Source: a virus | Taxonomy: Duplodnaviria > Heunggongvirae > Uroviricota > Caudoviricetes | Direction: 5' to 3' (one strand) | DNA: 64,000 nucleotides | IMG/VR virus record: IMGVR_UViG_2799112923_000001 | Shown here: piece after piece, positions 20,478 to 50,457 of the stretch | Position numbering within the stretch: position 1 is the first letter of the stretch | How the letters are laid out: every line of letters starts with the position of its first letter | Translations under genes and position numbers: made by a program | The notes under the pieces: model-generated | Seen by the model: only the letters and a program-made list of their open reading frames with translations | What the model was told of the DNA's origin: nothing | The model's database searches: none

Positions 20478-21842
20478 ATGAAATTTGAACAATTTTTAAA
20501 TGAAAAATTAGCAGACGATTTAACACCATCCCAAATGGATTACTATTGGAAAGCAATCCACGCATATAACTCCTGGAAAAAGAACCAAAAGAACTCTATG
20601 AAAGTCAAGAATATGTTATCTTTCATACTTATGAATTTTAACCTAGATGACCGTGCTACAGCTAAAATTACAAATCTTAAAAATACAGTAGATGAATATA
20701 TTCAAAATGGTAATTTGGTTATAGCACCAATCAAACATAGAGAAAAGAAAGAAGAAGAACCTGAAACCAAGCAAGAAGTAACTATTGACGAAACTGAGTA
20801 CCAGACTATTGAGATAGATAAAGAATTTTGCGAGAAAGCATTTGATAAATTCAATCAAAAGTATTTTGAAAATAAACTTGCTAAAATACCATTTGAAATA
20901 AAATCTATTGGTGGTGGTATTGAAGGTCAATTCGCATTTACTGTTAATTATAGAGATAAAAAATTTGACCCAATTTGTATTAGAATTAATAAAAAAGATG
21001 ACTGGACTTTATCTTCATTTAGAAATACATTAGTCCACGAAATGCTTCACTATTATGTTCACTGCTATAATAATGGATTAACTGAAGAAGATTGGCAATC
21101 AGCATTCTTTTATTTAATTCGTGGTAAAAAACGCAAAGCAAATTCAATCCTAGAAGTAACTGATGCTACATGCCACGGTGGTATTTGGTTGAAATTAGCA
21201 AAAGAATTAAATAAGAGATATACTGAACTATGTATCACTAGAAATGGATTCGTTAGTTATCGTGCTGAAACAGATAAAGTAAAAGTCATTAACCAACTAA
21301 AAGACGCATACGCAGTAGAATTACTTTATATGGGTTCTACTAAATTCCCAAGATATAGATTAGTTAATAAAGAACAACTTGATAAAATAATGAGTTTTAT
21401 TAAAGAAAGTCCAACTGTTAAAGTAGATGAATATGGTAGTCTTGATTATACAGACCCAACAACTAATTTTATTTCGGATTTAAGTATTAGTTATCGTAAT
21501 CCAAATGATTTTACAGATGTTTATGCAGCTCAAATTGTAAATCCTGTTCCATTAGCAGAATTTCCAATTAGAGATATAGAAAAGGAACCTTATGCTATGG
21601 GTAAAGAAGAATGGAAACAAATGAATCACACATCAGCTTTCGGAAAATTCAAGAAACTCGGTGAAATCAAAATTAAAACAAAAGAAAACGAAAGTAAAGA
21701 AGAAACCAATTTCTTAAACTGGTTAAATGAAAAAACACAAAAGAAATGGGATATTGAAAAATTGAAAGCATTAGGATTAACTGACGAAGAAATAGAAAAA
21801 TTACTATCCGGTGATGTGGAAGAACAATGTACTATTGAATAA
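20478..21842 (+). CDS. SprT-like zinc metalloprotease
   Basis: FNQKYF..KL, TLVHEMLHYY, HG..W..LA..LN. Confidence 0.8.
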   Translation: MKFEQFLNEKLADDLTPSQMDYYWKAIHAYNSWKKNQKNSMKVKNMLSFILMNFNLDDRATAKITNLKNTVDEYIQNGNLVIAPIKHREKKEEEPETKQEVTIDETEYQTIEIDKEFCEKAFDKFNQKYFENKLAKIPFEIKSIGGGIEGQFAFTVNYRDKKFDPICIRINKKDDWTLSSFRNTLVHEMLHYYVHCYNNGLTEEDWQSAFFYLIRGKKRKANSILEVTDATCHGGIWLKLAKELNKRYTELCITRNGFVSYRAETDKVKVINQLKDAYAVELLYMGSTKFPRYRLVNKEQLDKIMSFIKESPTVKVDEYGSLDYTDPTTNFISDLSISYRNPNDFTDVYAAQIVNPVPLAEFPIRDIEKEPYAMGKEEWKQMNHTSAFGKFKKLGEIKIKTKENESKEETNFLNWLNEKTQKKWDIEKLKALGLTDEEIEKLLSGDVEEQCTIE

Positions 21843-27228: not shown

Positions 27229-27493
27229 TTCTTCAGTATTCAAAAAAACTTTTTTGTTAAAATACCCATTGACAATTAGAATTTTTAATACTATATTATA
27301 TCTCGTTAAATGATTGAGAACAACCATTAAACGAAAACAGAAAAAGAGAAGTTAAATGTAAAAAACATTTTACAAAACTACCTCTTGACAATGGATTGAA
27401 AAGAATCTATATTAGTTCTCGTTGATTGGTTGAGTAATCAAGAAACAAATTTTGAAAAATAAAAATTATACATACAATATAGGAAAACAGAAA

Positions 27494-27625
27494 ATGATGT
27501 CTATTAAGAATCTACATAACATTTGCTCCGAACGAGATTGGCTCCGCGTCAATGCCAATTCAATGCAGGGTGCATTTGCAGGCATCGCCTTTATTGAATG
27601 TGGAGAGGGATTATATAGTCCGTAG
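27494..27625 (+). CDS. Putative attenuator leader peptide of tRNA cluster 1 (43 aa)
   Basis: AGGA RBS; MMSIKNLHNICSERDWLRVNANSMQGAFAGIAFIECGEGLYSP; 3' end overlaps antiterminator arm. Confidence 0.7.
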   Translation: MMSIKNLHNICSERDWLRVNANSMQGAFAGIAFIECGEGLYSP

Positions 27626-27689
27626 ATTTTATTTGTTTTTCCGGCGTAACAAATTAAATCCATTGGACTAAAATCCAATGGATTTTTTT
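27608..27689 (+). promoter_or_regulatory. Antiterminator/terminator switch before tRNA cluster 1
   Basis: Terminator AAATCCATTGGA-CTAAAA-TCCAATGGATTT+T run; alternative hairpin 27608-27637 with 27648-27676. Confidence 0.7.
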
Positions 27690-27744
27690 ATTACTCTTTT
27701 GCTGGTAAGCCAGTAGTGGAGAAACCACTTAAAAAACAAATTAT

Positions 27745-27819
27745 GGCCCTATCGTCTAGTTTTGGTTAGGACACAAGAATTTCACTCTTGAAACACCAGT
27801 TCAAATCTGGTTGGGGCTA
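27745..27819 (+). tRNA. tRNA-Glu(TTC)
   Basis: CAAGA-ATTTCAC-TCTTG anticodon arm. Confidence 0.85.
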
Positions 27820-27834
27820 CTAACAAACTAATAT

Positions 27835-27907
27835 GGTACTGTAGAATACTTGGTTAGTTCGCTGCCCTTTCAAGGCGGAAAAGAGAGTTCAAATCTCTCC
27901 AGTACTA
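27835..27907 (+). tRNA. tRNA-Glu(TTC)
   Basis: CTGCC-CTTTCAA-GGCGG. Confidence 0.9.
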
Positions 27908-27920
27908 CTAACAAATTAAT

Positions 27921-27994
27921 GGGTGTGTGGTGAAGTGGTTTAACACACCGGTCTGTCTAACCGGCATACGCGGGTCCGAATCCCGCCATACTCG
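27921..27994 (+). tRNA. tRNA-Asp(GTC)
   Basis: CCGGT-CTGTCTA-ACCGG. Confidence 0.9.
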
Positions 27995-28006
27995 CTAAAA
28001 CATTTT

Positions 28007-28080
28007 GGTTTCGTGGTGAAGTGGTCTAACACATTGGTCTGTCTAACCAACATTCGTGGGTTCAAATCCCACCGGAATCG
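28007..28080 (+). tRNA. tRNA-Asp(GTC)
   Basis: TTGGT-CTGTCTA-ACCAA. Confidence 0.9.
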
Positions 28081-28090
28081 TACAAATTAT

Positions 28091-28166
28091 GGGCTTGTAG
28101 TTCAGTCTTTGGTAGAACGCCGCACTTGCACTGCGGAGGTCATGGGTTCAAATCCCTTCAGGTCCA
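28091..28166 (+). tRNA. tRNA-Ala(TGC)
   Basis: CCGCA-CTTGCAC-TGCGG, G3:U70. Confidence 0.9.
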
Positions 28167-28181
28167 CTACATACAAATTAT

Positions 28182-28254
28182 TCCACCTTAGATCAGTTGG
28201 TAGATCAGGGCACTGTTAATGCCTTAGTCCCAGGTCCGAGTCCTGGAGGTGGAG
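28182..28254 (+). tRNA. tRNA-Asn(GTT)
   Basis: GGGCA-CTGTTAA-TGCCT. Confidence 0.9.
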
Positions 28255-28308
28255 CGAAAACAAAAAATGGTGGTAATCCACTGGTGCTGGAAGCACCTTA
28301 AAAACTTG

Positions 28309-28382
28309 GCCCTCTAATCCAAATCCAGTGATTGGACCGGACTGAAAATCCGAGAAGCTGCGGGCGGCACGCAGAGTGGGCA
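28309..28382 (+). tRNA. tRNA-Phe(GAA), atypical D and T loops
   Basis: CGGA-CTGAAAA-TCCG; T arm CTGCG-GGCGGCA-CGCAG. Confidence 0.7.
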
Positions 28383-28394
28383 CGAACAAATTAT

Positions 28395-28467
28395 TCCGGT
28401 ATAACTCAACTGGTAGAGTGTTTCCTTCATACGGAAAAAGTTGTAGGTTCAAATCCTACTACCGGGA
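28395..28467 (+). tRNA. tRNA-Met/Ile2(CAT)
   Basis: TTTCC-TTCATAC-GGAAA. Confidence 0.85.
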
Positions 28468-28479
28468 CTAACAAATTAA

Positions 28480-28555
28480 CTCTCCTTCGCCTAGCTGGTT
28501 TATGGCACCTGTCTTACAAACAGGAACAACCTTGGTTCAAATCCAAGAGGGGAGA
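28480..28555 (+). tRNA. tRNA-Val(TAC)
   Basis: CCTGT-CTTACAA-ACAGG. Confidence 0.85.
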
Positions 28556-28558
28556 TAC

Positions 28559-28629
28559 TGCCCATTGGTGTAATGGTAACACGGCTCGCTCTGACCGAGC
28601 AATCAGTAGTCCGAATCTATTATGGGCAA
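28559..28629 (+). tRNA. tRNA-Gln(CTG)
   Basis: GCTCG-CTCTGAC-CGAGC. Confidence 0.85.
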
Positions 28630-28641
28630 CGAACAAATTAT

Positions 28642-28718
28642 CGGCAACTATCTCCTCGCTCTGATAAGGCGTTGAAAGAGTAAATGGTTACATGTAGGTT
28701 CAATCCCTATGTTGCCGA
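28642..28718 (+). tRNA. Rearranged tRNA-Ile(GAT)-like RNA
   Basis: Acceptor CGGCAAC/GTTGCCG, CGCT-CTGATAA-GGCG arm, T arm present, no D arm in normal position. Confidence 0.6.
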
Positions 28719-28722
28719 CTAT

Positions 28723-28796
28723 CGCCCGGTGACGGAACTGGCATACGTGTCTGCCTTAGAAGCAGAATTTTGAGAGTTCAAATCTCTCCTGGGCGA
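28723..28796 (+). tRNA. tRNA-Leu(TAG), short variable loop
   Basis: TCTGC-CTTAGAA-GCAGA. Confidence 0.85.
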
Positions 28797-28808
28797 CTAA
28801 ACATTTTT

Positions 28809-28893
28809 GGAGGTGTGGCAGAGCGGCTTATTGCGTCGGTCCTGAAAACCGAAGATGGTAAAACATCCGTGGGTTCAAATCCTACCACCTCTT
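28809..28893 (+). tRNA. tRNA-Ser(TGA)
   Basis: TCGGT-CCTGAAA-ACCGA, long variable arm. Confidence 0.85.
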
Positions 28894-28901
28894 CTACTTA
28901 T

Positions 28902-28974
28902 ACTCTCGTAGGCTAACTGGATAAACCACTGGACTACGAATCCGGCATTGAAGGTTCAAATCCTTCCGAGAGTA
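28902..28974 (+). tRNA. tRNA-Arg(ACG)
   Basis: CTGGA-CTACGAA-TCCGG. Confidence 0.9.
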
Positions 28975-28988
28975 CGAACAAATTATTT

Positions 28989-29062
28989 GTGGCTATATCA
29001 TAGTCTGGTTAATGAGCCTGTTTACCAAACAGGTTACCTGGGTTCAAATCCCAGTAGCCACT
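28989..29062 (+). tRNA. tRNA-Gly(ACC)
   Basis: CCTGT-TTACCAA-ACAGG, U73. Confidence 0.8.
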
Positions 29063-29070
29063 TACCAAAT

Positions 29071-29159
29071 GCTTATGTGACCCGAGTCTGGCGAAGGGGG
29101 CGGTCTGCAAAACCGTTGTGTTTACAGCACCATCGTTGGTTCAAATCCAATCATAAGCT
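29071..29159 (+). tRNA. tRNA-Cys(GCA), long variable arm
   Basis: GCGGT-CTGCAAA-ACCGT, U73. Confidence 0.85.
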
Positions 29160-29163
29160 CTAT

Positions 29164-29234
29164 ATCTCATTGGTGTAACGGCAGCATGGCTGGTTCCAAC
29201 CCAGTTGGTGGGGGTTCAAATCCTTCATGAGGTG
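29164..29234 (+). tRNA. tRNA-Trp(CCA)
   Basis: GCTGG-TTCCAAC-CCAGT, G73. Confidence 0.85.
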
Positions 29235-29247
29235 CGAAAGTAAATAA

Positions 29248-29319
29248 GTCCTATTGGTGTAGCTGGAAACATGGCAGTCTTCCAAACTGGTGTCGCGGGT
29301 CCGAACCCCGCATAGGGCT
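29248..29319 (+). tRNA. tRNA-Gly(TCC)
   Basis: CAGT-CTTCCAA-ACTG, U73. Confidence 0.85.
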
Positions 29320-29338
29320 CTACAAACAAACTATCATC

Positions 29339-29412
29339 TCCGTATTAGTGTTAATTGGTTAGCACGCAAGTTTGTGGCACTTGTAGTCTGAGTTCAAATC
29401 TCAGATATGGAA
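29339..29412 (+). tRNA. tRNA-His(GTG), lacking G-1/C73
   Basis: CAAGT-TTGTGGC-ACTTG. Confidence 0.8.
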
Positions 29413-29415
29413 TAT

Positions 29416-29487
29416 ATCTCCGTATGTCAATGGTTAGACGAGCAGACTCTTAATCTGTGGATCTGGGTCCGAATCCCAGCGGGGGTA
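29416..29487 (+). tRNA. tRNA-Lys(CTT)
   Basis: GCAGA-CTCTTAA-TCTGT. Confidence 0.9.
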
Positions 29488-29501
29488 CGAACAAATTAAA
29501 T

Positions 29502-29574
29502 GGGCTTACATGTTCCTTGGAGGCGAATCTCCCTAGCACGGAGATTGTGATGGGTCCGATTCCCATTAGGTCCA
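29502..29574 (+). tRNA. tRNA-Ala(AGC)
   Basis: TCTCC-CTAGCAC-GGAGA, G3:U70, atypical D arm. Confidence 0.75.
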
Positions 29575-29583
29575 CGAAATCAT

Positions 29584-29614
29584 AACTGGTAAACTTTTGT
29601 TTACCAGTTTTTTG
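29584..29614 (+). terminator. Terminator ending tRNA cluster 1
   Basis: AACTGGTAAAC-TTTT-GTTTACCAGTT+T run. Confidence 0.85.
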
Positions 29615-31920: not shown

Positions 31921-32354
31921 ATTCTACAGTTCTCAAAAATAAAAATTTTTGGATCAGTATAAACAAATTAACTATATTTGGCAATAAAATAGTAAGTCTA
32001 TTTCCTCGGAGCGAAGCTCAACTCAATGCAGTTATCGGTAGAGGGATAGCCATTTTGCCAAATAGTTCGGTGGCATCGGAATGTAAGAACATCGTAGTTT
32101 GGATTAGCAACCCAAACATATAGCCGCTTTGGTAGAATAGAATGTAGCTGGAGTACAGGAAAACCGACCCATAAGTCTATTCGTAAATCCCACAGAAGTT
32201 GATACTTATACTTTATACAAAAAAGAAGGTATCTCAAGTTCTAGTTGACCTAACTAGGCTTGAAGTATCCTCTTACCATTACCAAAAAAGAATTCATTAA
32301 AAATCATTTTTGAGTTTATCTCAAAAATGATTTTGTTTGCGTTAGCAAACATAC

Positions 32355-44119: not shown

Positions 44120-44192
44120 GGGTTTGTAACTCAGTTGGTAGAGTAACGCACTTTTAATGCGTGAGTCGGGGGTCCGAGTCCCCCCAAGCCCA
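44120..44192 (+). tRNA. tRNA-Lys(TTT)
   Basis: ACGCA-CTTTTAA-TGCGT. Confidence 0.9.
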
Positions 44193-44292
44193 CGAACAAA
44201 CTAATGTTCCAAAAGGGAAAAAGCGGGTGGCTCATAGAGCCTAGCCACAAGATGGAAGCCCGCCCACTCAGGTGCGATTTTTGGAATGTTAC

Positions 44293-44366
44293 CGGGATGT
44301 AGTTCAATCTGGTAGAATGGTCGCTTTGGGAGCGAGTGGTTGCAGGTTCAAATCCTGTCATCCCGA
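44293..44366 (+). tRNA. tRNA-Pro(TGG)
   Basis: TCGC-TTTGGGA-GCGA. Confidence 0.9.
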
Positions 44367-44679
44367 CGAAAGGTTTAAGATTTGGAAACCGTTAACCTTT
44401 AAAAATGGGTAGGATATGATGGTAGTCCTTTTAACACTGACATCCATTAATTGTTATGTTGTTTAAATTAGGAAAGCAGGGATGCGATAACCTGCACGAT
44501 TAACCAACATCGTTAGTTCATTTGTAGTTAGAACAAATTAAACAACTGACTATGGGATATAAACTATCTTGAAGGCCAAAAGATATTATCCCCGAGTAGA
44601 TAGGCGAAACCGGTTCGTAATAAACAAGGCTCTCGCCACGATTTTAATAGTTTGTGATGATACAAACAACAGAACTTAT

Positions 44680-44763
44680 TGGTAGGTACCCGAGTGGTAG
44701 CAGGGGGGAGACTGTTAATCTCTTGTCGCAAGACCGCCGCAGGTTCGAATCCTGCCCTATCAG
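44680..44763 (+). tRNA. tRNA-Asn(GTT), Tyr-like long variable arm
   Basis: GGAGA-CTGTTAA-TCTCT, G73. Confidence 0.85.
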
Positions 44764-45105
44764 CTAAAAGAATGAATGGTTAGTAGTACAAATGAACTCA
44801 ATGTAGTAATACTGAGTGCTTAGTACACTCTCCAATAAACCGGAGAGAGATGTTAATGTGACTGTTATGGGTCATTGGTTTAACCTAACTGAGTGTTTAA
44901 CAAAATCACATTTGGTAGTAAAAGGTACAAACTACGCCTGCGCAGATGCCGGGAGTTGCCAACATCCTAAATTGGTAATGTGGTGAATGAATACAAACTA
45001 AACTGGATGATGTTGTATTCTACGAACAATATAATTACCAGTAGTCAATTATGTTGCGAGGCACTTTTTTCCATAGTATGCGTCAAAATGGAACAAATTT
45101 TATAT

Positions 45106-45190
45106 GCTAGTTTCGGATAGTGGTCAATTCCTGGAGACTGTAAATCTCCCGCCCTCTGGGCTTTCGGTGGTTCAAATCCACCAGCTAGCA
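45106..45190 (+). tRNA. tRNA-Tyr(GTA)
   Basis: GGAGA-CTGTAAA-TCTCC. Confidence 0.9.
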
Positions 45191-45226
45191 CTAATACAGA
45201 ATTTTGAAGAATGGTGATGTGAAACA

Positions 45227-45302
45227 GTCCCCATACGCAAGTGGCTAAAGCGGCTCCCTGAACGAGGGAGTGAATTCATGGGTTCAAATCCCATTGGAGA
45301 TT
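45227..45302 (+). tRNA. tRNA-like element, nominal Val(AAC) or pseudo-tRNA
   Basis: D and T arms intact; CTCCC-TGAACGA-GGGAG; mismatched acceptor. Confidence 0.5.
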
Positions 45303-45566
45303 GAAGTAGCATTGAACAAATCAGGCCTCATACGCAATTTGTTCTAACCAAACTTCATCGGGTGAATAGATGATTGAAAATCCTAGGTAATCATTCAGTC
45401 ACAATTCACCCACCGGTTTTGAAGAAAACTAAATCAACAGGTGGTGTTATACTATTAATTTGTTGTAAACATAGTTGATTCCCACCCGCCCGTCTAAAAA
45501 GATGAATGTGAAGGCCTCCGGCGATGCTCCGATAAACGCATTGTGATTTAGAACAACATTTTTTTC

Positions 45567-45640
45567 GCACCCGTGGCTCAACTGGATAGAGCAACGCACT
45601 TCTAATGCGTAGGTTGTAGGTCCGAGTCCTACCGGGTGTA
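45567..45640 (+). tRNA. tRNA-Arg(TCT)
   Basis: ACGCA-CTTCTAA-TGCGT. Confidence 0.9.
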
Positions 45641-45650
45641 CTAAATTTAC

Positions 45651-45723
45651 TGGGGTATAGCCAAGCTGGTAAGGCAGGGGCCTTTGAAGCCTTTATTCGG
45701 GAGTTCAAATCTCTCTACCCCAA
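45651..45723 (+). tRNA. tRNA-Gln(TTG)
   Basis: GGGGC-CTTTGAA-GCCTT. Confidence 0.9.
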
Positions 45724-45836
45724 CGAAATCAGTTGATGAATGCATCTCAATGTTTAGAAACACAGAACGCATGGTGGAAATCCTGCAAGCAGAAGTTGTG
45801 ACTGCGATAATAAATTAAATAACAACAAATTCTTTC

Positions 45837-45910
45837 CCATCCTTAGTTCAACTGGTTAGAGCGCGGCTCTTATAAGGCTGAAGTTCTAGGTTCAAATCCT
45901 AGAGGGTGGA
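45837..45910 (+). tRNA. tRNA-Ile(TAT)
   Basis: CGGCT-CTTATAA-GGCTG. Confidence 0.85.
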
Positions 45911-45944
45911 CTACCGCTTTTCGCCATAGTACGGGTCAAAATGG

Positions 45945-46445
45945 CAAAATGTGAAAGTAGTTCAAAAGCGATTAGCACCACGCAAATACAAGGTTTGTAT
46001 TGGATGCAAGTTTGACAAGCGTTTCGCTAGTGGTAAGAACGAGTTGCTTCCGAAGATTGGCAGAATCAGCTATGTAAGGCTGTTTAGGAAGTGTAAAATG
46101 CAAGTGTTATGTAGTACACGGACCACGCAAGGTAAATGACCTTATGCTATGCCCACGATAGTCTTTCACTCACAAAGTAGATATATGTGAAAAATACCAA
46201 GTGGTTTACCAATTTGCCTCTATCTACAAAATTGGAAAATCTTTAATGGTTATAGACGAAACTGACCAATGTAAAATAGTTATATGCTCCTTGATAAAGT
46301 GGAATTTATTTTGGATAAAGTATATTATAAAATCTATTTGAATAATACAATAGTTAGACGTTTAGCAGTGAAAAGTTAGACAGAGTAATGATGGCTCGTT
46401 AAGCCCTATCCGAGGGTGTAGTTGAATGGCACACTGGTAAGAACA
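45945..46445 (+). ncRNA. Candidate large structured ncRNA
   Basis: About 500 nt without a credible ORF between tRNAs, many short helices. Confidence 0.35.
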
Positions 46446-46479
46446 AAAACTAAATGAACTAAACAAAACATCATACTAT

Positions 46480-46563
46480 GGCCTGGTGATGAAATTGGTA
46501 AACATAGGGGACTTAAAATCCCCCGGTGGTAACACCTTGTGGGTTCAAGTCCCACCTTGGCTA
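46480..46563 (+). tRNA. tRNA-Leu(TAA)
   Basis: GGGGA-CTTAAAA-TCCCC. Confidence 0.9.
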
Positions 46564-46591
46564 CGAACAAAATAATTGGAGATTATTAACT

Positions 46592-46801
46592 ATGATTAAT
46601 ACTGGTTGGGTTCCAGGTTATCTACAAACTACTGGCAGAATGTTACATGAGAGTGGCAAACGCGGTGGTGGTTGTGGTGGACCGAAGAAAGACGATGACG
46701 ATGATGACGAAGATATTAGCATTGTAAAGATTTTACTTTTTTTGTTATTATTCTTTGGTATTGTTGGATTATTCTTTTTCTTGCTTTGTGTTATGTTTTA
46801 A
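46592..46801 (+). CDS. Small membrane protein within tRNA cluster
   Basis: GGAG RBS; poly-D then C-terminal TM. Confidence 0.6.
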   Translation: MINTGWVPGYLQTTGRMLHESGKRGGGCGGPKKDDDDDDEDISIVKILLFLLLFFGIVGLFFFLLCVMF

Positions 46802-46917
46802 TTGTGAAGTTTAGCAAAAACAAAATTCATAAATAAACCATTGACAAACATAAAACAAAAAACTATAATTGAATATGTAAACGATACGAATTTAGACGGA
46901 TAGTCAATTTCTTTCGG

Positions 46918-46991
46918 GCCTCATTGATGTAGTGTTAGCATGAAATGTTTCCGACCTTTTCGCCTGAGTTAGATTCTCAGATGAGGCTCCA
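46918..46991 (+). tRNA. Atypical tRNA-Gly(TCC)
   Basis: GCCTCAT/ATGAGGC-T-CCA; no D-loop GG; T loop TTAGATT. Confidence 0.55.
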
Positions 46992-47094
46992 AAAAGAAAA
47001 AAGAATTTTGGTTTCCAATTTTTCCTTAAAAATTGGTGGTGGTCGCTTGGAATTTTGTTAGTTTATCCATGACCAAAACAAAACTAACAACCAT

Positions 47095-47179
47095 CCTCCG
47101 ATGGCGGAACTTGGTAGACGCGCTGGACTCAAAATCCAGTTCTCGCAAGAGAGTGTGAGTTCAATTCTCACTTGGAGGA
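47095..47179 (+). tRNA. tRNA-Leu(CAA)
   Basis: CTGGA-CTCAAAA-TCCAG. Confidence 0.9.
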
Positions 47180-47399
47180 CTAATACCAAAGTAAAATAGA
47201 GAACTGTGATTTAAAAGTATCAGGTAGTTTGTAGTACTGACCTTAACAAAAACTAGGAAATTTGAAGAGTCATTGGCTTAACCAATGTGGAGCGATACCC
47301 CTGATAAGGGTTCCCGCAAGCTGTGTAGTGCTTTGAACTACACACAAATTTAGAAGGAGAAAATGGTTTGTTAATTTACCACAAATAAATTAACACCAT

Positions 47400-47472
47400 G
47401 CCTGGTTAGCACAGCTGGTAGTGCAGCGGCTTTGTAATCCGCAGGTCGGGGGTTCGGGTCCCTCACCAGGCG
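47400..47472 (+). tRNA. tRNA-Thr(TGT)
   Basis: GCGG-CTTTGTAAT-CCGC. Confidence 0.85.
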
Positions 47473-47485
47473 TAATAAATAAACA

Positions 47486-48100
47486 GATTGAGAAATCAAT
47501 CAAGCGAAATCTTTAGCCTAATACAAATCTAATCTGGTTTGAAGGCACTATGGATGCACTGAAAAGGTGTTTGAAGTAGGTATGAGATAATCGCAAAAAC
47601 ATAGGGTAAACTGCGTAACTATTAGTTAGAGGTTTATATGTTTGTGGAATTTTGAGATACCCAGGGTTCCACAGGCTACGAAACAGATGTGGCGTCTGAG
47701 TTCAAATATAAGTCGCTAAAGCCGAAATAGTGAGAGTTTTATCGGATGACAGATATGCTATTTTTGGCACAGATTGCCGATATGTGTGTAAATCCACACC
47801 AGTGACTTGTAGCATTGAAAGGGGTAGCTGCCGAGTAAATGTGTTGCTGTGACCTAATAATGTTTGGTTATTTCATTAAAGGTAAACCCCAGTCCTTTAA
47901 GTTTCGTTTTATTGATTTTTCAATCTTGAACAAGATAATCCAGGAAACGGAGGTTTGTTATCTCATAGCGACGCACTGCTATCTGTAAGATAATGAGCGG
48001 GCACGAAATGGAAGCGCTGACACTCTAAGCTCTGTTAGACATGGACTGATAATTAATATATCTTGTTAGGGTACCTAAATGTCCGAGAGTACCTGCCATT
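47486..48100 (+). ncRNA. Candidate large ornate ncRNA (ROOL/GOLLD-like context)
   Basis: 47486-47508 pairs with 47902-47925; 47581-47590 pairs with 47958-47967; no ORF. Confidence 0.55.
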
Positions 48101-48193
48101 TAAACAAAAACATACTTGGTTGTCCTACGAACCTTCACGATTTTTGAAATCGTAAAGGAATGAGAGTTTGTATGTTCTCTCATAAGATTTTAT

Positions 48194-48267
48194 CGCGGGG
48201 TGTAAGCAGTTGGTAGCTGGCAAGGCCCATAACCTTGAGGTCGCGGGTTCAAGTCCCGCCCCCGCTA
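48194..48267 (+). tRNA. Initiator tRNA-fMet(CAT)
   Basis: CGCGGGG acceptor with C1 mismatch; CAAGG-CCCATAA-CCTTG. Confidence 0.85.
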
Positions 48268-48738
48268 GAATTTGTCCACAAAGAAAAATGCGGTCAGAAC
48301 GCATTGGACCTTTTCCTGGTGAGAGCCTCGTAACTAGGACTGTAGCAAACGAGGCAACGAATTTAACGCGGCACAATTATTCTTTTTGCGAATTTGTTTA
48401 AAACAAACACAGATTCCACCATAAGAAGAAATAATTTCGTACAAACGCAAATAATCCTAATGACGTCTAATGGAACGATTGTGAGTGCGGCGACCAATTA
48501 ACTAATGGCTGATAGACGATAAATAAAATGAAGATATGAATATGGTTGCGGGTTGAGTCTAGATATTCCTTCTAGAATTATTCATTTCTCGGAAGTGACG
48601 AATCGGTATTCTTCCGGGCCATTATTTTGAAATTTAAACGTCTCCTAGGCGGTTATTGGTTCTTTACAATTTTCTCCACTAATCAAAAGAAAATCTATTT
48701 TTTGTTTGTTGTTACCTCCTTGGGTTGTGGTTGACCCA

Positions 48739-48771
48739 ATGCTCACTAGCGAATGTTAGTGAGCATTTTTT
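48739..48771 (+). terminator. Terminator ending tRNA cluster 2
   Basis: ATGCTCACTAGC-GAAT-GTTAGTGAGCAT+T run. Confidence 0.85.
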
Positions 48772-48958
48772 GTAAGTACTGGTGCCATACTGACCAGTTT
48801 TTATTTAATTGGTATAGTTTACTATCCAACACAGAAATCGCCTTATAACGCAAGTACTGACGAATACTGTGTAAACAAACTTTTACAAAGAAATAGTTGC
48901 CAACCTGTATATTAGTTACTATATTATGGTTGTTAAAAATTAAAAGAGAGGTAAAAAT

Positions 48959-49150
48959 ATGAAGAAAGTTTATGTTCTCACATACAACACTATGGATAAG
49001 CCTGAACGTCGCATGATTTGGGGTGTTTATGGCTCAAAGGCAACAGATAAGGAAAACCACGATGAAGCAGAAAAGGCTCGTCAGGGCATTATCAAGCAGT
49101 ATGGTTCATTCCTAGCAGATACAGAAATTGATGAACAAGAAGTAAGGTAA
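48959..49150 (+). CDS. Hypothetical protein
   Basis: GAGGT RBS after promoter. Confidence 0.65.
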   Translation: MKKVYVLTYNTMDKPERRMIWGVYGSKATDKENHDEAEKARQGIIKQYGSFLADTEIDEQEVR

Positions 49151-49717
49151 ATGGATTATAAACAATCTATCGGTGCCGTTGTTAGGCATTTTTACGAACA
49201 CCATACTGATGTATGGTGTTTTTGTCCTGGTTTCCCTAATAATTACAAAGAAATGAAGTTATCCGAATTTGGTGAAACTGATGAAGAAATTGCGAACAAG
49301 ATAATAGACCAGTTACATGAAACTAAACTAGAATTTGAAATGTTCAGTTCCGACAACAGTCATCCAGGTGGTTCATTTTATGGGCCGTCATTGTATATTG
49401 AAAATGGTTATACTCCATTCCCAGATGGTGGAAAACCTAAATGGATTACTGGTACATTGAAAATGATACAACAAGTTCCAATGTTAAGGTATTATGGTGA
49501 TGATAAACGAATTTTCCAGTTAGGAAGTAAACCTGTAAATTTTTATTTCACACAACAGTTTAAAGGGCAAAACGATTTTGATAATTATTTGAAGTATTTG
49601 AAGAAAACAGAAGAAATAATCAAACACAACAAAGAATATCAAGATAGATTTGAAATTGATAAGAAATATGTAAAAGCCCAAGACCTGGAACAAGCAATTC
49701 AAACTGATTTTGATTAA
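49151..49717 (+). CDS. Hypothetical protein, DF-tail family
   Basis: Ends LEQAIQTDFD. Confidence 0.75.
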   Translation: MDYKQSIGAVVRHFYEHHTDVWCFCPGFPNNYKEMKLSEFGETDEEIANKIIDQLHETKLEFEMFSSDNSHPGGSFYGPSLYIENGYTPFPDGGKPKWITGTLKMIQQVPMLRYYGDDKRIFQLGSKPVNFYFTQQFKGQNDFDNYLKYLKKTEEIIKHNKEYQDRFEIDKKYVKAQDLEQAIQTDFD

Positions 49718-49863
49718 CACAGTTCGCCACCAAACAAAATGATTATTGTGGCTATTGAAAAATTATAAATAATAAACTATATTATAACTACTAAAATGGT
49801 TTACATTTAGCCCCCTGAGCAATTTGTGTATGGGATTGGTTAAATGGTTTGCCTTAAAATCTA

Positions 49864-49985
49864 CCACCCGTGGTGTAATGGTAGCACGGTAGGATATAAT
49901 AGAGATAAATTATTATTGATTTTTATAATAGAGTTATATAATAATAATTGGAATCAGGTGGGTGGTTCAAATCCCCCGGGGTGGT
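49864..49985 (+). ncRNA. tRNA-like RNA with AT-rich insertion replacing anticodon arm
   Basis: CCACCCG-TGGTGTAATGGTAGCAC 5' half; GGTTCAAATCCC-GGGGTGGT 3' half. Confidence 0.6.
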
Positions 49986-49998
49986 CTAAATTAGAATT

Positions 49999-50166
49999 TG
50001 GGTATAGTTCCCTGCACACAGTTCTAGAATGCGTGTTCAAGAAGCCCGCAGTAAGACCTCTGTGAAAGGTTTGGTGAGTTATCCTTGTCGCAAGGCACGA
50101 AGATTTGAAAGGGAATAAATGGATTAGATAGCAACTCAACTATCGCCGGGCGCAGTCCAATACCCA
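49999..50166 (+). ncRNA. Candidate structured RNA (about 170 nt)
   Basis: TGGGTAT/ATACCCA closing stem, TTCCCT/AGGGAA, GCCCG/CGGGC, GAGTT/AACTC. Confidence 0.45.
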
Positions 50167-50193
50167 TCACATTTAATACAAAGGAAAAACAAG

Positions 50194-50349
50194 ATGAAAA
50201 AGAAGAAAGTAGTTATTGAGAAAGAAACACAGGAACAGAAAGAAGCTCGTTGGAAGAAGAATTTGAAGATGGCACGAAGTTTTGCTAAACAAGCAGGTGT
50301 AAAGAAAGAAAAGAAAGTAGAAAAGCAATCGGAAAAATACGATTACTAA
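50194..50349 (+). CDS. Small Lys/Glu-rich protein (51 aa; not in ORF track)
   Basis: AAGGA RBS. Confidence 0.55.
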   Translation: MKKKKVVIEKETQEQKEARWKKNLKMARSFAKQAGVKKEKKVEKQSEKYDY

Positions 50350-50357
50350 CTACAGTT

Positions 50358-50440
50358 GGAGGATTAGCCTAATTGGTAAGGCAGCAGATTACTAATCTGC
50401 CGCGGGAAACCGCTTGGGGGTTCAAGTCCCTCATCCTCCG
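50358..50440 (+). tRNA. tRNA-Ser(ACT)
   Basis: GCAGA-TTACTAA-TCTGC, long variable arm, G73. Confidence 0.85.
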
Positions 50441-50457
50441 TTAATTGAGAACAAACT

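Follow-up and report, generated by a model that had tools for sequence, protein, structure and literature searches.

A short open reading frame, followed by an intrinsic terminator, precedes an array of 21 tRNA genes in the phage DNA studied here (a window of 64,000 nucleotides), and its codons correspond to the tRNAs encoded by this array. We interpret it as being, quite probably, a ribosome-coupled transcription attenuator that exerts tRNA-supply feedback on the 21-gene array, with translation and read-through inferred. It is a real conserved feature: anatomy, codon match, conservation, compensatory structure and partial covariation with the array were all observed. Leader translation, read-through on stalling, four-way wobble by U34 and the physiological trigger are inferred. 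With somewhat less assurance, we favour the reading that a single ORF serves as sensor for the whole tRNA pool, offering at least one codon per encoded tRNA, such that depletion of any of them by defence nucleases or infection would turn on the array, which would shut itself off as tRNAs accumulate.

Two tRNA clusters and the anatomy of the leader

The source is a large rumen phage, with PHROGs matches to a terminase large subunit, a baseplate hub and a tail protein, related contigs of up to 407 kb, and occurrences mostly in bovine and sheep gut runs. Two tRNA clusters are present in the window, both on the plus strand. Cluster 1 (27745-29575), the gated array, comprises 21 genes with 19 anticodons: Glu-TTC and Asp-GTC (two genes each), Ala-TGC, Asn-GTT, Phe-GAA, Met-CAT, Val-TAC, Gln-CTG, Ile-GAT, Leu-TAG, Ser-TGA, Arg-ACG, Gly-ACC, Cys-GCA, Trp-CCA, Gly-TCC, His-GTG, Lys-CTT and Ala-AGC. 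The count is based on 18 ARAGORN calls, Ala-AGC at a relaxed threshold, and Phe and Ile by their position in relatives. A hairpin with a T-run at the end of the array (29584-29613, plus strand) was seen in the sequence and is absent from the listing of the promoter/terminator scan. Cluster 2 (44120-50441) is ungated and encodes Lys-TTT, Pro, Asn, Tyr, Val-AAC, Arg-TCT, Gln-TTG, Ile-TAT, Leu-TAA, Gly-TCC, Leu-CAA, Thr, Met and Ser-ACT; no terminator was found between its promoters and its first tRNA.

The two atypical members of cluster 1, tRNA-Phe-GAA (28309-28381) and tRNA-Ile-GAT (28642-28717), both on the plus strand, were missed by ARAGORN and Rfam. An initial annotation of the window had included both in the set of cluster 1; they are uncalled there, but the same anticodons are called in the respective slots of relatives. 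A canonical Phe-GAA gene occupies the slot of the 28309 gene in the related loci L020, L025 and L034-L036. The atypical Ile-GAT has nearly no D-arm, being very short before the anticodon arm and carrying a long segment after it; it is identical or near-identical in several clade A phages (L019, L020, L025, L034, L035) and is replaced by a canonical Ile-GAT at the same position in L036.

Upstream of the array, two promoters of the form TTGACA-17-TATATT lie on the plus strand, P1 at 27269-27297 (11/12 consensus match) and P2, located by the promoter scan, at 27385-27413. Promoters of the P1 type also precede other phage genes, at 29658 and 33617. They are followed by an A/T block (27467-27484) that ends in the Shine-Dalgarno motif AGGA (27481-27484) and is largely invariant in the alignment of clades A, B and C. 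Downstream of this AGGA lies the leader ORF (27494-27625, plus strand) of 43 codons and a TAG stop, homologues of which occur in 30 loci. The 5' arm of the antiterminator (27608-27637) is formed by leader codons 39-43, the stop and 12 further nucleotides, and has counterparts in clades B and C. Its loop and linker (27638-27655) constitute a block common to clades A and B that contains the motif AACAAATTA, while its 3' arm (27648-27676) overlaps the 5' arm and loop of the intrinsic terminator (27656-27689), which consists of a 12-bp stem (27656-27685) and a U-tract, all on the plus strand. Thus, every element of the arrangement first reported, a 43-codon ORF between TTGACA promoters and the first tRNA with a strong terminator behind it, could be located, and the features of an attenuator are present: a promoter, a short ORF with a ribosome-binding site, and a terminator before the regulated genes. 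An independent promoter between terminator and first tRNA (27690-27745) would have refuted the idea according to the initial annotation; no promoter-like site was found there in the window.

A promoter-like site at 27646-27674 (9/12) was discarded, as it is not conserved in clade B. Likewise rejected was the reading of the leader TAG as Gln by one gene caller, because TAG ends the VWA-like gene in L001 and L002 (TAA in the window) and a suppressor tRNA is missing from the window's tRNA calls. Contigs from RNA runs cover leader, terminator and array, and one of them, X19 (27451-28094), bridges all three; they may be DNA, and since they lack information on strand, ends and level, we did not count them as evidence. 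The motif AACAAATTA occurs eight times on the plus strand in window 27648-29498, with most copies just past tRNA 3' ends and one within the antiterminator. It is a possible processing or protein-binding signal, its role being unexplained.

Codon content and the switch point

Leader codons 1-39 use exactly 17 amino acids, with Thr, Tyr and Pro missing and the codons AAA, CAA, AGA and ATA absent, as originally described. All of codons 2-39 are readable by tRNAs of the array. The concordance test suggested at the outset yielded P=5.5e-7 against the codon usage of the phage (14,874 codons from 65 window ORFs), and full array readability was reached by 0/12,339 windows of real genes and by 0/50,000 open-frame base shuffles. 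The absence of Thr, Tyr and Pro by itself has P=0.0017; with the peptide fixed, the synonymous codon choice has P=0.001. Each array anticodon is served by at least one sensor codon, i.e., 19/19 in clade A and 18/18 in clade B. The full match requires that U34 reads entire four-codon boxes: the claimed agreement at codon level holds beyond chance, but TCT, TCC, CTC and GTC fail under strict wobble and become array-readable only with four-way wobble of U34. The matches for Lys and Gln, though present, rest on one codon each. Finally, the tail had been linked to cluster 2 through Tyr and Pro; these codons do match cluster 2, yet not they alone, as all four last codons (40-43: TTA, TAT, AGT, CCG) correspond to cluster-2 tRNAs.

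The cut-off at codon 39 was picked after inspection. Folding gives the same boundary independently. The segment 27608-27676 forms one hairpin with an MFE of -21.2 kcal/mol (z -4.6), compared to -13.9 kcal/mol for the terminator core. Pairing of 27608-27637 with 27648-27676 consumes the terminator 5' arm, the two structures having 27656-27676 in common, so that the mutual exclusion postulated in the initial annotation is borne out by the MFE structure of that stretch. We then masked the RNA under the ribosome codon by codon. With the ribosome at codon 38 or earlier, the terminator arm of the window is sequestered; the last such codon is 29 in L001, L002 and L046 and 28 in L024, and the arm is freed beyond. 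This places the switch points at codons 38-39, 29-30 and 28-29, respectively; the first array-unreadable codons are 40, 30 and 31. The switch point thus falls at the end of the array-readable codons, and the boundary proposed initially is recovered by folding alone in two clades. Codons 1-38 are accordingly inferred to be the sensor, while codons 39-43 lie in the antiterminator arm; the control codons are related to the regulated tRNA genes and sited upstream of the switch point.

The quality of the switch differs between alleles. In L002 and L046 it is clean at equilibrium, with a terminator probability of at most 0.16 for stalls at codons 1-28 and at least 0.94 from codon 29 on. In the window, the equilibrium favours the terminator except with a stall at codons 35-37, and a competing hairpin weakens the antiterminator. 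Hence, the claim that a stall at any listed codon permits read-through stands only in part: the terminator arm is sequestered up to codon 38, but the antiterminator wins at equilibrium only at codons 35-37. Before the 3' part is made, the window leader tail gains only -4.9 kcal/mol on the terminator arm (68/500 shuffles were as strong), whereas the tails of clades B and C bind their own terminator arm best, at -11 to -18 kcal/mol (0/500 shuffles). Similarly, exclusivity of the antiterminator, with its 5' arm covered by a ribosome at the stop, is clean in clades B and C and marginal at equilibrium in the window. As the window equilibrium favours the terminator, the model needs a kinetic trap, in which the antiterminator forms first and lasts until polymerase has passed; for the window allele such a trap is plausible, not shown. 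Without a ribosome, the MFE structure is terminated in the window, L034, L001 and L024, and antiterminated in L002 and L046.

Conservation and covariation among relatives

Searches for relatives started from the adjacent VWA-like gene and from a 21-base motif. The cassette occurs in 30 loci, representing 15 alleles in three clades. Clade A is of the window type with a leader of 43 aa, and clade B leaders measure 35-37 aa and are 35-45% identical to the clade A peptide. Clade C is a single leader of 42 aa (L045), which uses 19 amino acids, Gln being the missing one. The search for a short ORF plus terminator ahead of tRNA arrays in related phages, advised by the initial annotation, thus revealed conservation in three clades. 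The alignment shows that the Shine-Dalgarno block, the start, the open frame, the stop position and the terminator are kept across clades. Both sides of 4/11 terminator pairs changed across clades (a shuffle test of this covariation is inflated by relatedness), and the antiterminator is rebuilt from different sequence in each clade. A few leader residues are the same throughout clades A and B, and in some database variants the tail is shifted in frame or length. Three leaders of clades A and B were all that a profile search recovered, its weaker hits being long proteins, and no family match was found for the leader.

In L045, a consensus promoter (20959-20987) is located just past the terminator of the clade C leader, so that the gate may be bypassed there; the array behind it could not be read. 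The more distant phages G003 and G004 possess a single merged array and no leader of this type, and cultured phages match through tRNAs only. Pattern matches in L005, L007 and L009 were dismissed as chance matches in coding DNA. In L172, a short Arg-rich ORF ahead of a terminator was set aside too, as it overlaps the end of a real gene. A scan with a degenerate Shine-Dalgarno block returned unrelated matches only, and scans for further clade C members nothing relevant.

Leader and array covary in part. In clade A, tRNA-Asn is part of the gated array and the window leader contains four Asn codons; in clade B, tRNA-Asn is confined to the ungated cluster 2 and the sensor part is devoid of Asn codons. 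A single Val codon, GTC, accompanies an intact Val-TAC in the clade B loci L001, L018, L030 and L033. L002 and L046 have TTC in its place, and L049 has lost the codon by deletion; none of these three carries Val-TAC. L046 also changed TGG to TGT and lost tRNA-Trp, and in L051 and L038 leader and array are both absent. The prediction that leader codons co-vary with array content therefore holds for Asn and Val, but not for shrunken arrays: the reduced arrays of L046, L049 and L050 retain leader codons for the lost Lys, His, Gln and Met tRNAs, the Trp codon is kept in L049, and the Val codon in L050 and in L023, where Val-TAC is interrupted by an insertion and GTC remains. Some of these cases may reflect recent decay or assembly errors. 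The covariation events are few and not independent.

Among alleles of the same length, 12/12 alternative sensor codons are array-readable (about 0.68 expected for each, roughly P 0.01), and 7/12 change the amino acid. Readable substitutions together with the frame shifts in the tail indicate, within the limits of a few non-independent events, that selection acts on codon class and not on the peptide.

Homing-endonuclease-like ORFs, DUF559-like where annotated (L038), lie between or inside array tRNAs in L001 (13445-14070), L023 (5130-5875), L032 (2627-3360) and L035 (13800-14456); the one in L032 immediately follows the terminator behind the leader. In L046 and L050, IS605/TnpB elements adjoin the cassette. 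The cassette of L047 lies on a contig of 2.7 kb that was assigned to a Rickettsiales MAG, probably as a binning contaminant, and is no evidence of the host.

Proposed mechanism, rival readings and known systems

According to the proposed mechanism, transcription from P1/P2 would enter the leader with a ribosome following. When no sensor codon delays it, the ribosome would arrive at codon ~39 and the stop and cover the antiterminator 5' arm; the terminator would then fold, and transcription would end at ~27689. A scarce cognate tRNA, be it cut, degraded or outrun, would hold the ribosome at any of codons 2-38, the antiterminator would form first, and polymerase would read into the array. The array tRNAs are predicted to read every sensor codon and so to close the switch again, i.e., negative feedback. 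As extra tRNA cannot cure amino-acid starvation, the useful input would be a loss of tRNA. A plausible trigger, inferred by analogy, are defence nucleases of the kind that phage tRNAs are known to counter (PMC11555353). The ribosome-stall reading put forward in the initial annotation is supported by conservation, the rebuilt antiterminator, the switch point and the Asn/Val covariation, in the absence of data on translation or read-through.

Other readings have to be weighed against it. The attenuator could be real but a general sensor of the translation state, responding to global slowing, uncoupling, host shut-off or infection stage, with the codon set merely filtering false alarms by avoiding host-slow codons served by cluster 2. 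We regard this as unlikely, although it accounts for a number of findings: the fold is identical wherever in codons 1-38 the ribosome stalls, leaders persist where many array tRNAs have been lost, the codons left out belong to cluster 2, and the ribosome-free leader is antiterminated in L002 and L046. Avoidance, however, leaves unexplained why every array anticodon is sampled in both clades, including by single Trp, His, Gln, Lys and Val codons, and it does not account for the covariation of Asn and Val. Thr, Tyr and Pro are missing despite being common amino acids.

A functional small protein, or a stand-alone small RNA, ahead of a terminator that is leaky or yields to an antitermination protein, of phage or host origin, at the conserved linker motif, appears more doubtful still. 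The few residues invariant in clades A and B would suit a protein, the conserved linker block and the eight copies of AACAAATTA in 27648-29498 would suit protein-driven antitermination, and L045 has its own downstream promoter. Against a protein, the peptides of clades A and B are only 35-45% identical, frame or length of the tail differs in variants, there is no family match, the end of the ORF can pair in every clade with that clade's own terminator arm, and the codon content tracks the array. That a chance ORF happens to lie in the spacer ahead of an ordinary terminator can hardly be maintained. Short ORFs are common and the codon-39 boundary was set after inspection, but chance is at odds with the codon statistics (P=5.5e-7; 0/12,339; 0/50,000), with a Shine-Dalgarno block, start and open frame conserved in 15 alleles of three clades, and with the structural covariation of terminator and antiterminator.

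Leader-peptide attenuators of amino-acid operons include trpL and pheL and the multivalent ilvGMEDA and thr leaders. The pheM-pheST attenuator of E. coli likewise responds to charged tRNA and governs part of the translation machinery; it is specific for one amino acid and its output is a synthetase, whereas that of the phage leader would be tRNAs. In T-box riboswitches, tRNA status sets the choice between terminator and antiterminator by direct binding of tRNA and without an ORF. The phage leader is not a T-box: at 27400-27745, Rfam gave no hit to E 0.1, the T-box model with its stem I specifier loop and T-box bulge included.

Salmonella hisL is a leader-peptide attenuator of an amino-acid operon (PMC4046918). 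The phage leader resembles this type in its promoter, short ORF and an antiterminator exclusive with an intrinsic terminator, and in the logic that we propose for it, with termination at the stop and read-through on a stall. Unlike hisL, ilv and thr leaders, which control enzymes, it precedes tRNA genes, and its output would be the sensed molecule itself. Amino-acid leaders contain runs of codons for 1-3 amino acids; the phage leader samples 17 amino acids and 19 anticodons by scattered single codons, and the classical trp/his/ilv features, tandem control codons and biosynthetic or synthetase targets, are missing. A point against the attenuator is that a lone codon for each tRNA signals less strongly than the codon run in hisL. 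Moreover, classical attenuators have a protector hairpin that causes termination when there is no translation, and the default of untranslated hisL is termination, while the predicted default of the phage leader varies between alleles.

The nearest regulated tRNA array is the Anabaena trn operon, a long array that is normally silent and induced by translational stress (PMC10272220). It is plasmid-borne and controlled at initiation by the ribbon-helix-helix repressor TrcR, without leader codon matching (PMC10272220). In T5-like phages, a tRNA-rich region counters retron-Eco7 and PrrC and replaces host tRNAs destroyed by defence; as far as the source is available, a strong promoter is reported as its control and no attenuator is described (PMC11555353), in contrast to the predicted attenuator ahead of the array studied here. 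In line with the initial annotation, which knew of no phage tRNA array under leader-peptide attenuation, our literature search, from which subscription journals were mostly missing, found no description of one. Ribosome-mediated attenuation ahead of tRNA genes is thus probably new, expression data being absent, while the same control is already known for amino-acid genes.

The purpose of large phage tRNA arrays has long been debated, codon-usage compensation being set against the replacement of host tRNAs that defence systems have destroyed. In the genome studied here, the tRNAs are divided between an ungated cluster for A/T-rich codons such as AAA, CAA, AGA and TTA, and a gated array preceded by a sensor that samples the array's own anticodons; this division makes the replacement idea testable. 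The proposal would add tRNA supply to amino-acid supply as an input of attenuation, and it predicts which codons are read by each phage tRNA, e.g., four-way wobble by Val-TAC, Leu-TAG and Ser-TGA. If true, the leader is a readable record of the tRNAs supplied on demand versus constitutively.

Some further observations concern the tRNAs and their surroundings. The D and T loops of the Phe-GAA gene at 28309-28381 are non-canonical, and its slot is occupied by three different Phe bodies across relatives, which suggests frequent tRNA replacement with the anticodon retained. Four window tRNAs have A in the wobble position, which is rare in bacteria: Gly-ACC (28989-29062), Ala-AGC (29502-29575), Val-AAC (45226-45303) and Ser-ACT (50357-50441). 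In L036, L046 and L049, Gly-GCC takes the place of Gly-ACC. The tetranucleotide TCGA occurs once in the whole window as compared to about 144 expected occurrences, and GATC, GCGC and ACGT are likewise depleted, 5-7-fold. Many tRNAs carry TCCGA or TTCAA instead of TTCGA in the T-loop, variants consistent with restriction-site avoidance. Cluster 2 contains long, structured-looking non-coding spacers between its tRNAs (window 44200-48700), where the Rfam matches are tRNA only. A cow-rumen-2 RNA (RF02947, 103 bits) matches window 32091-32195. The conserved non-coding region around it is more extended (about 31990-32350) and lies directly 3' of the array in clade B.
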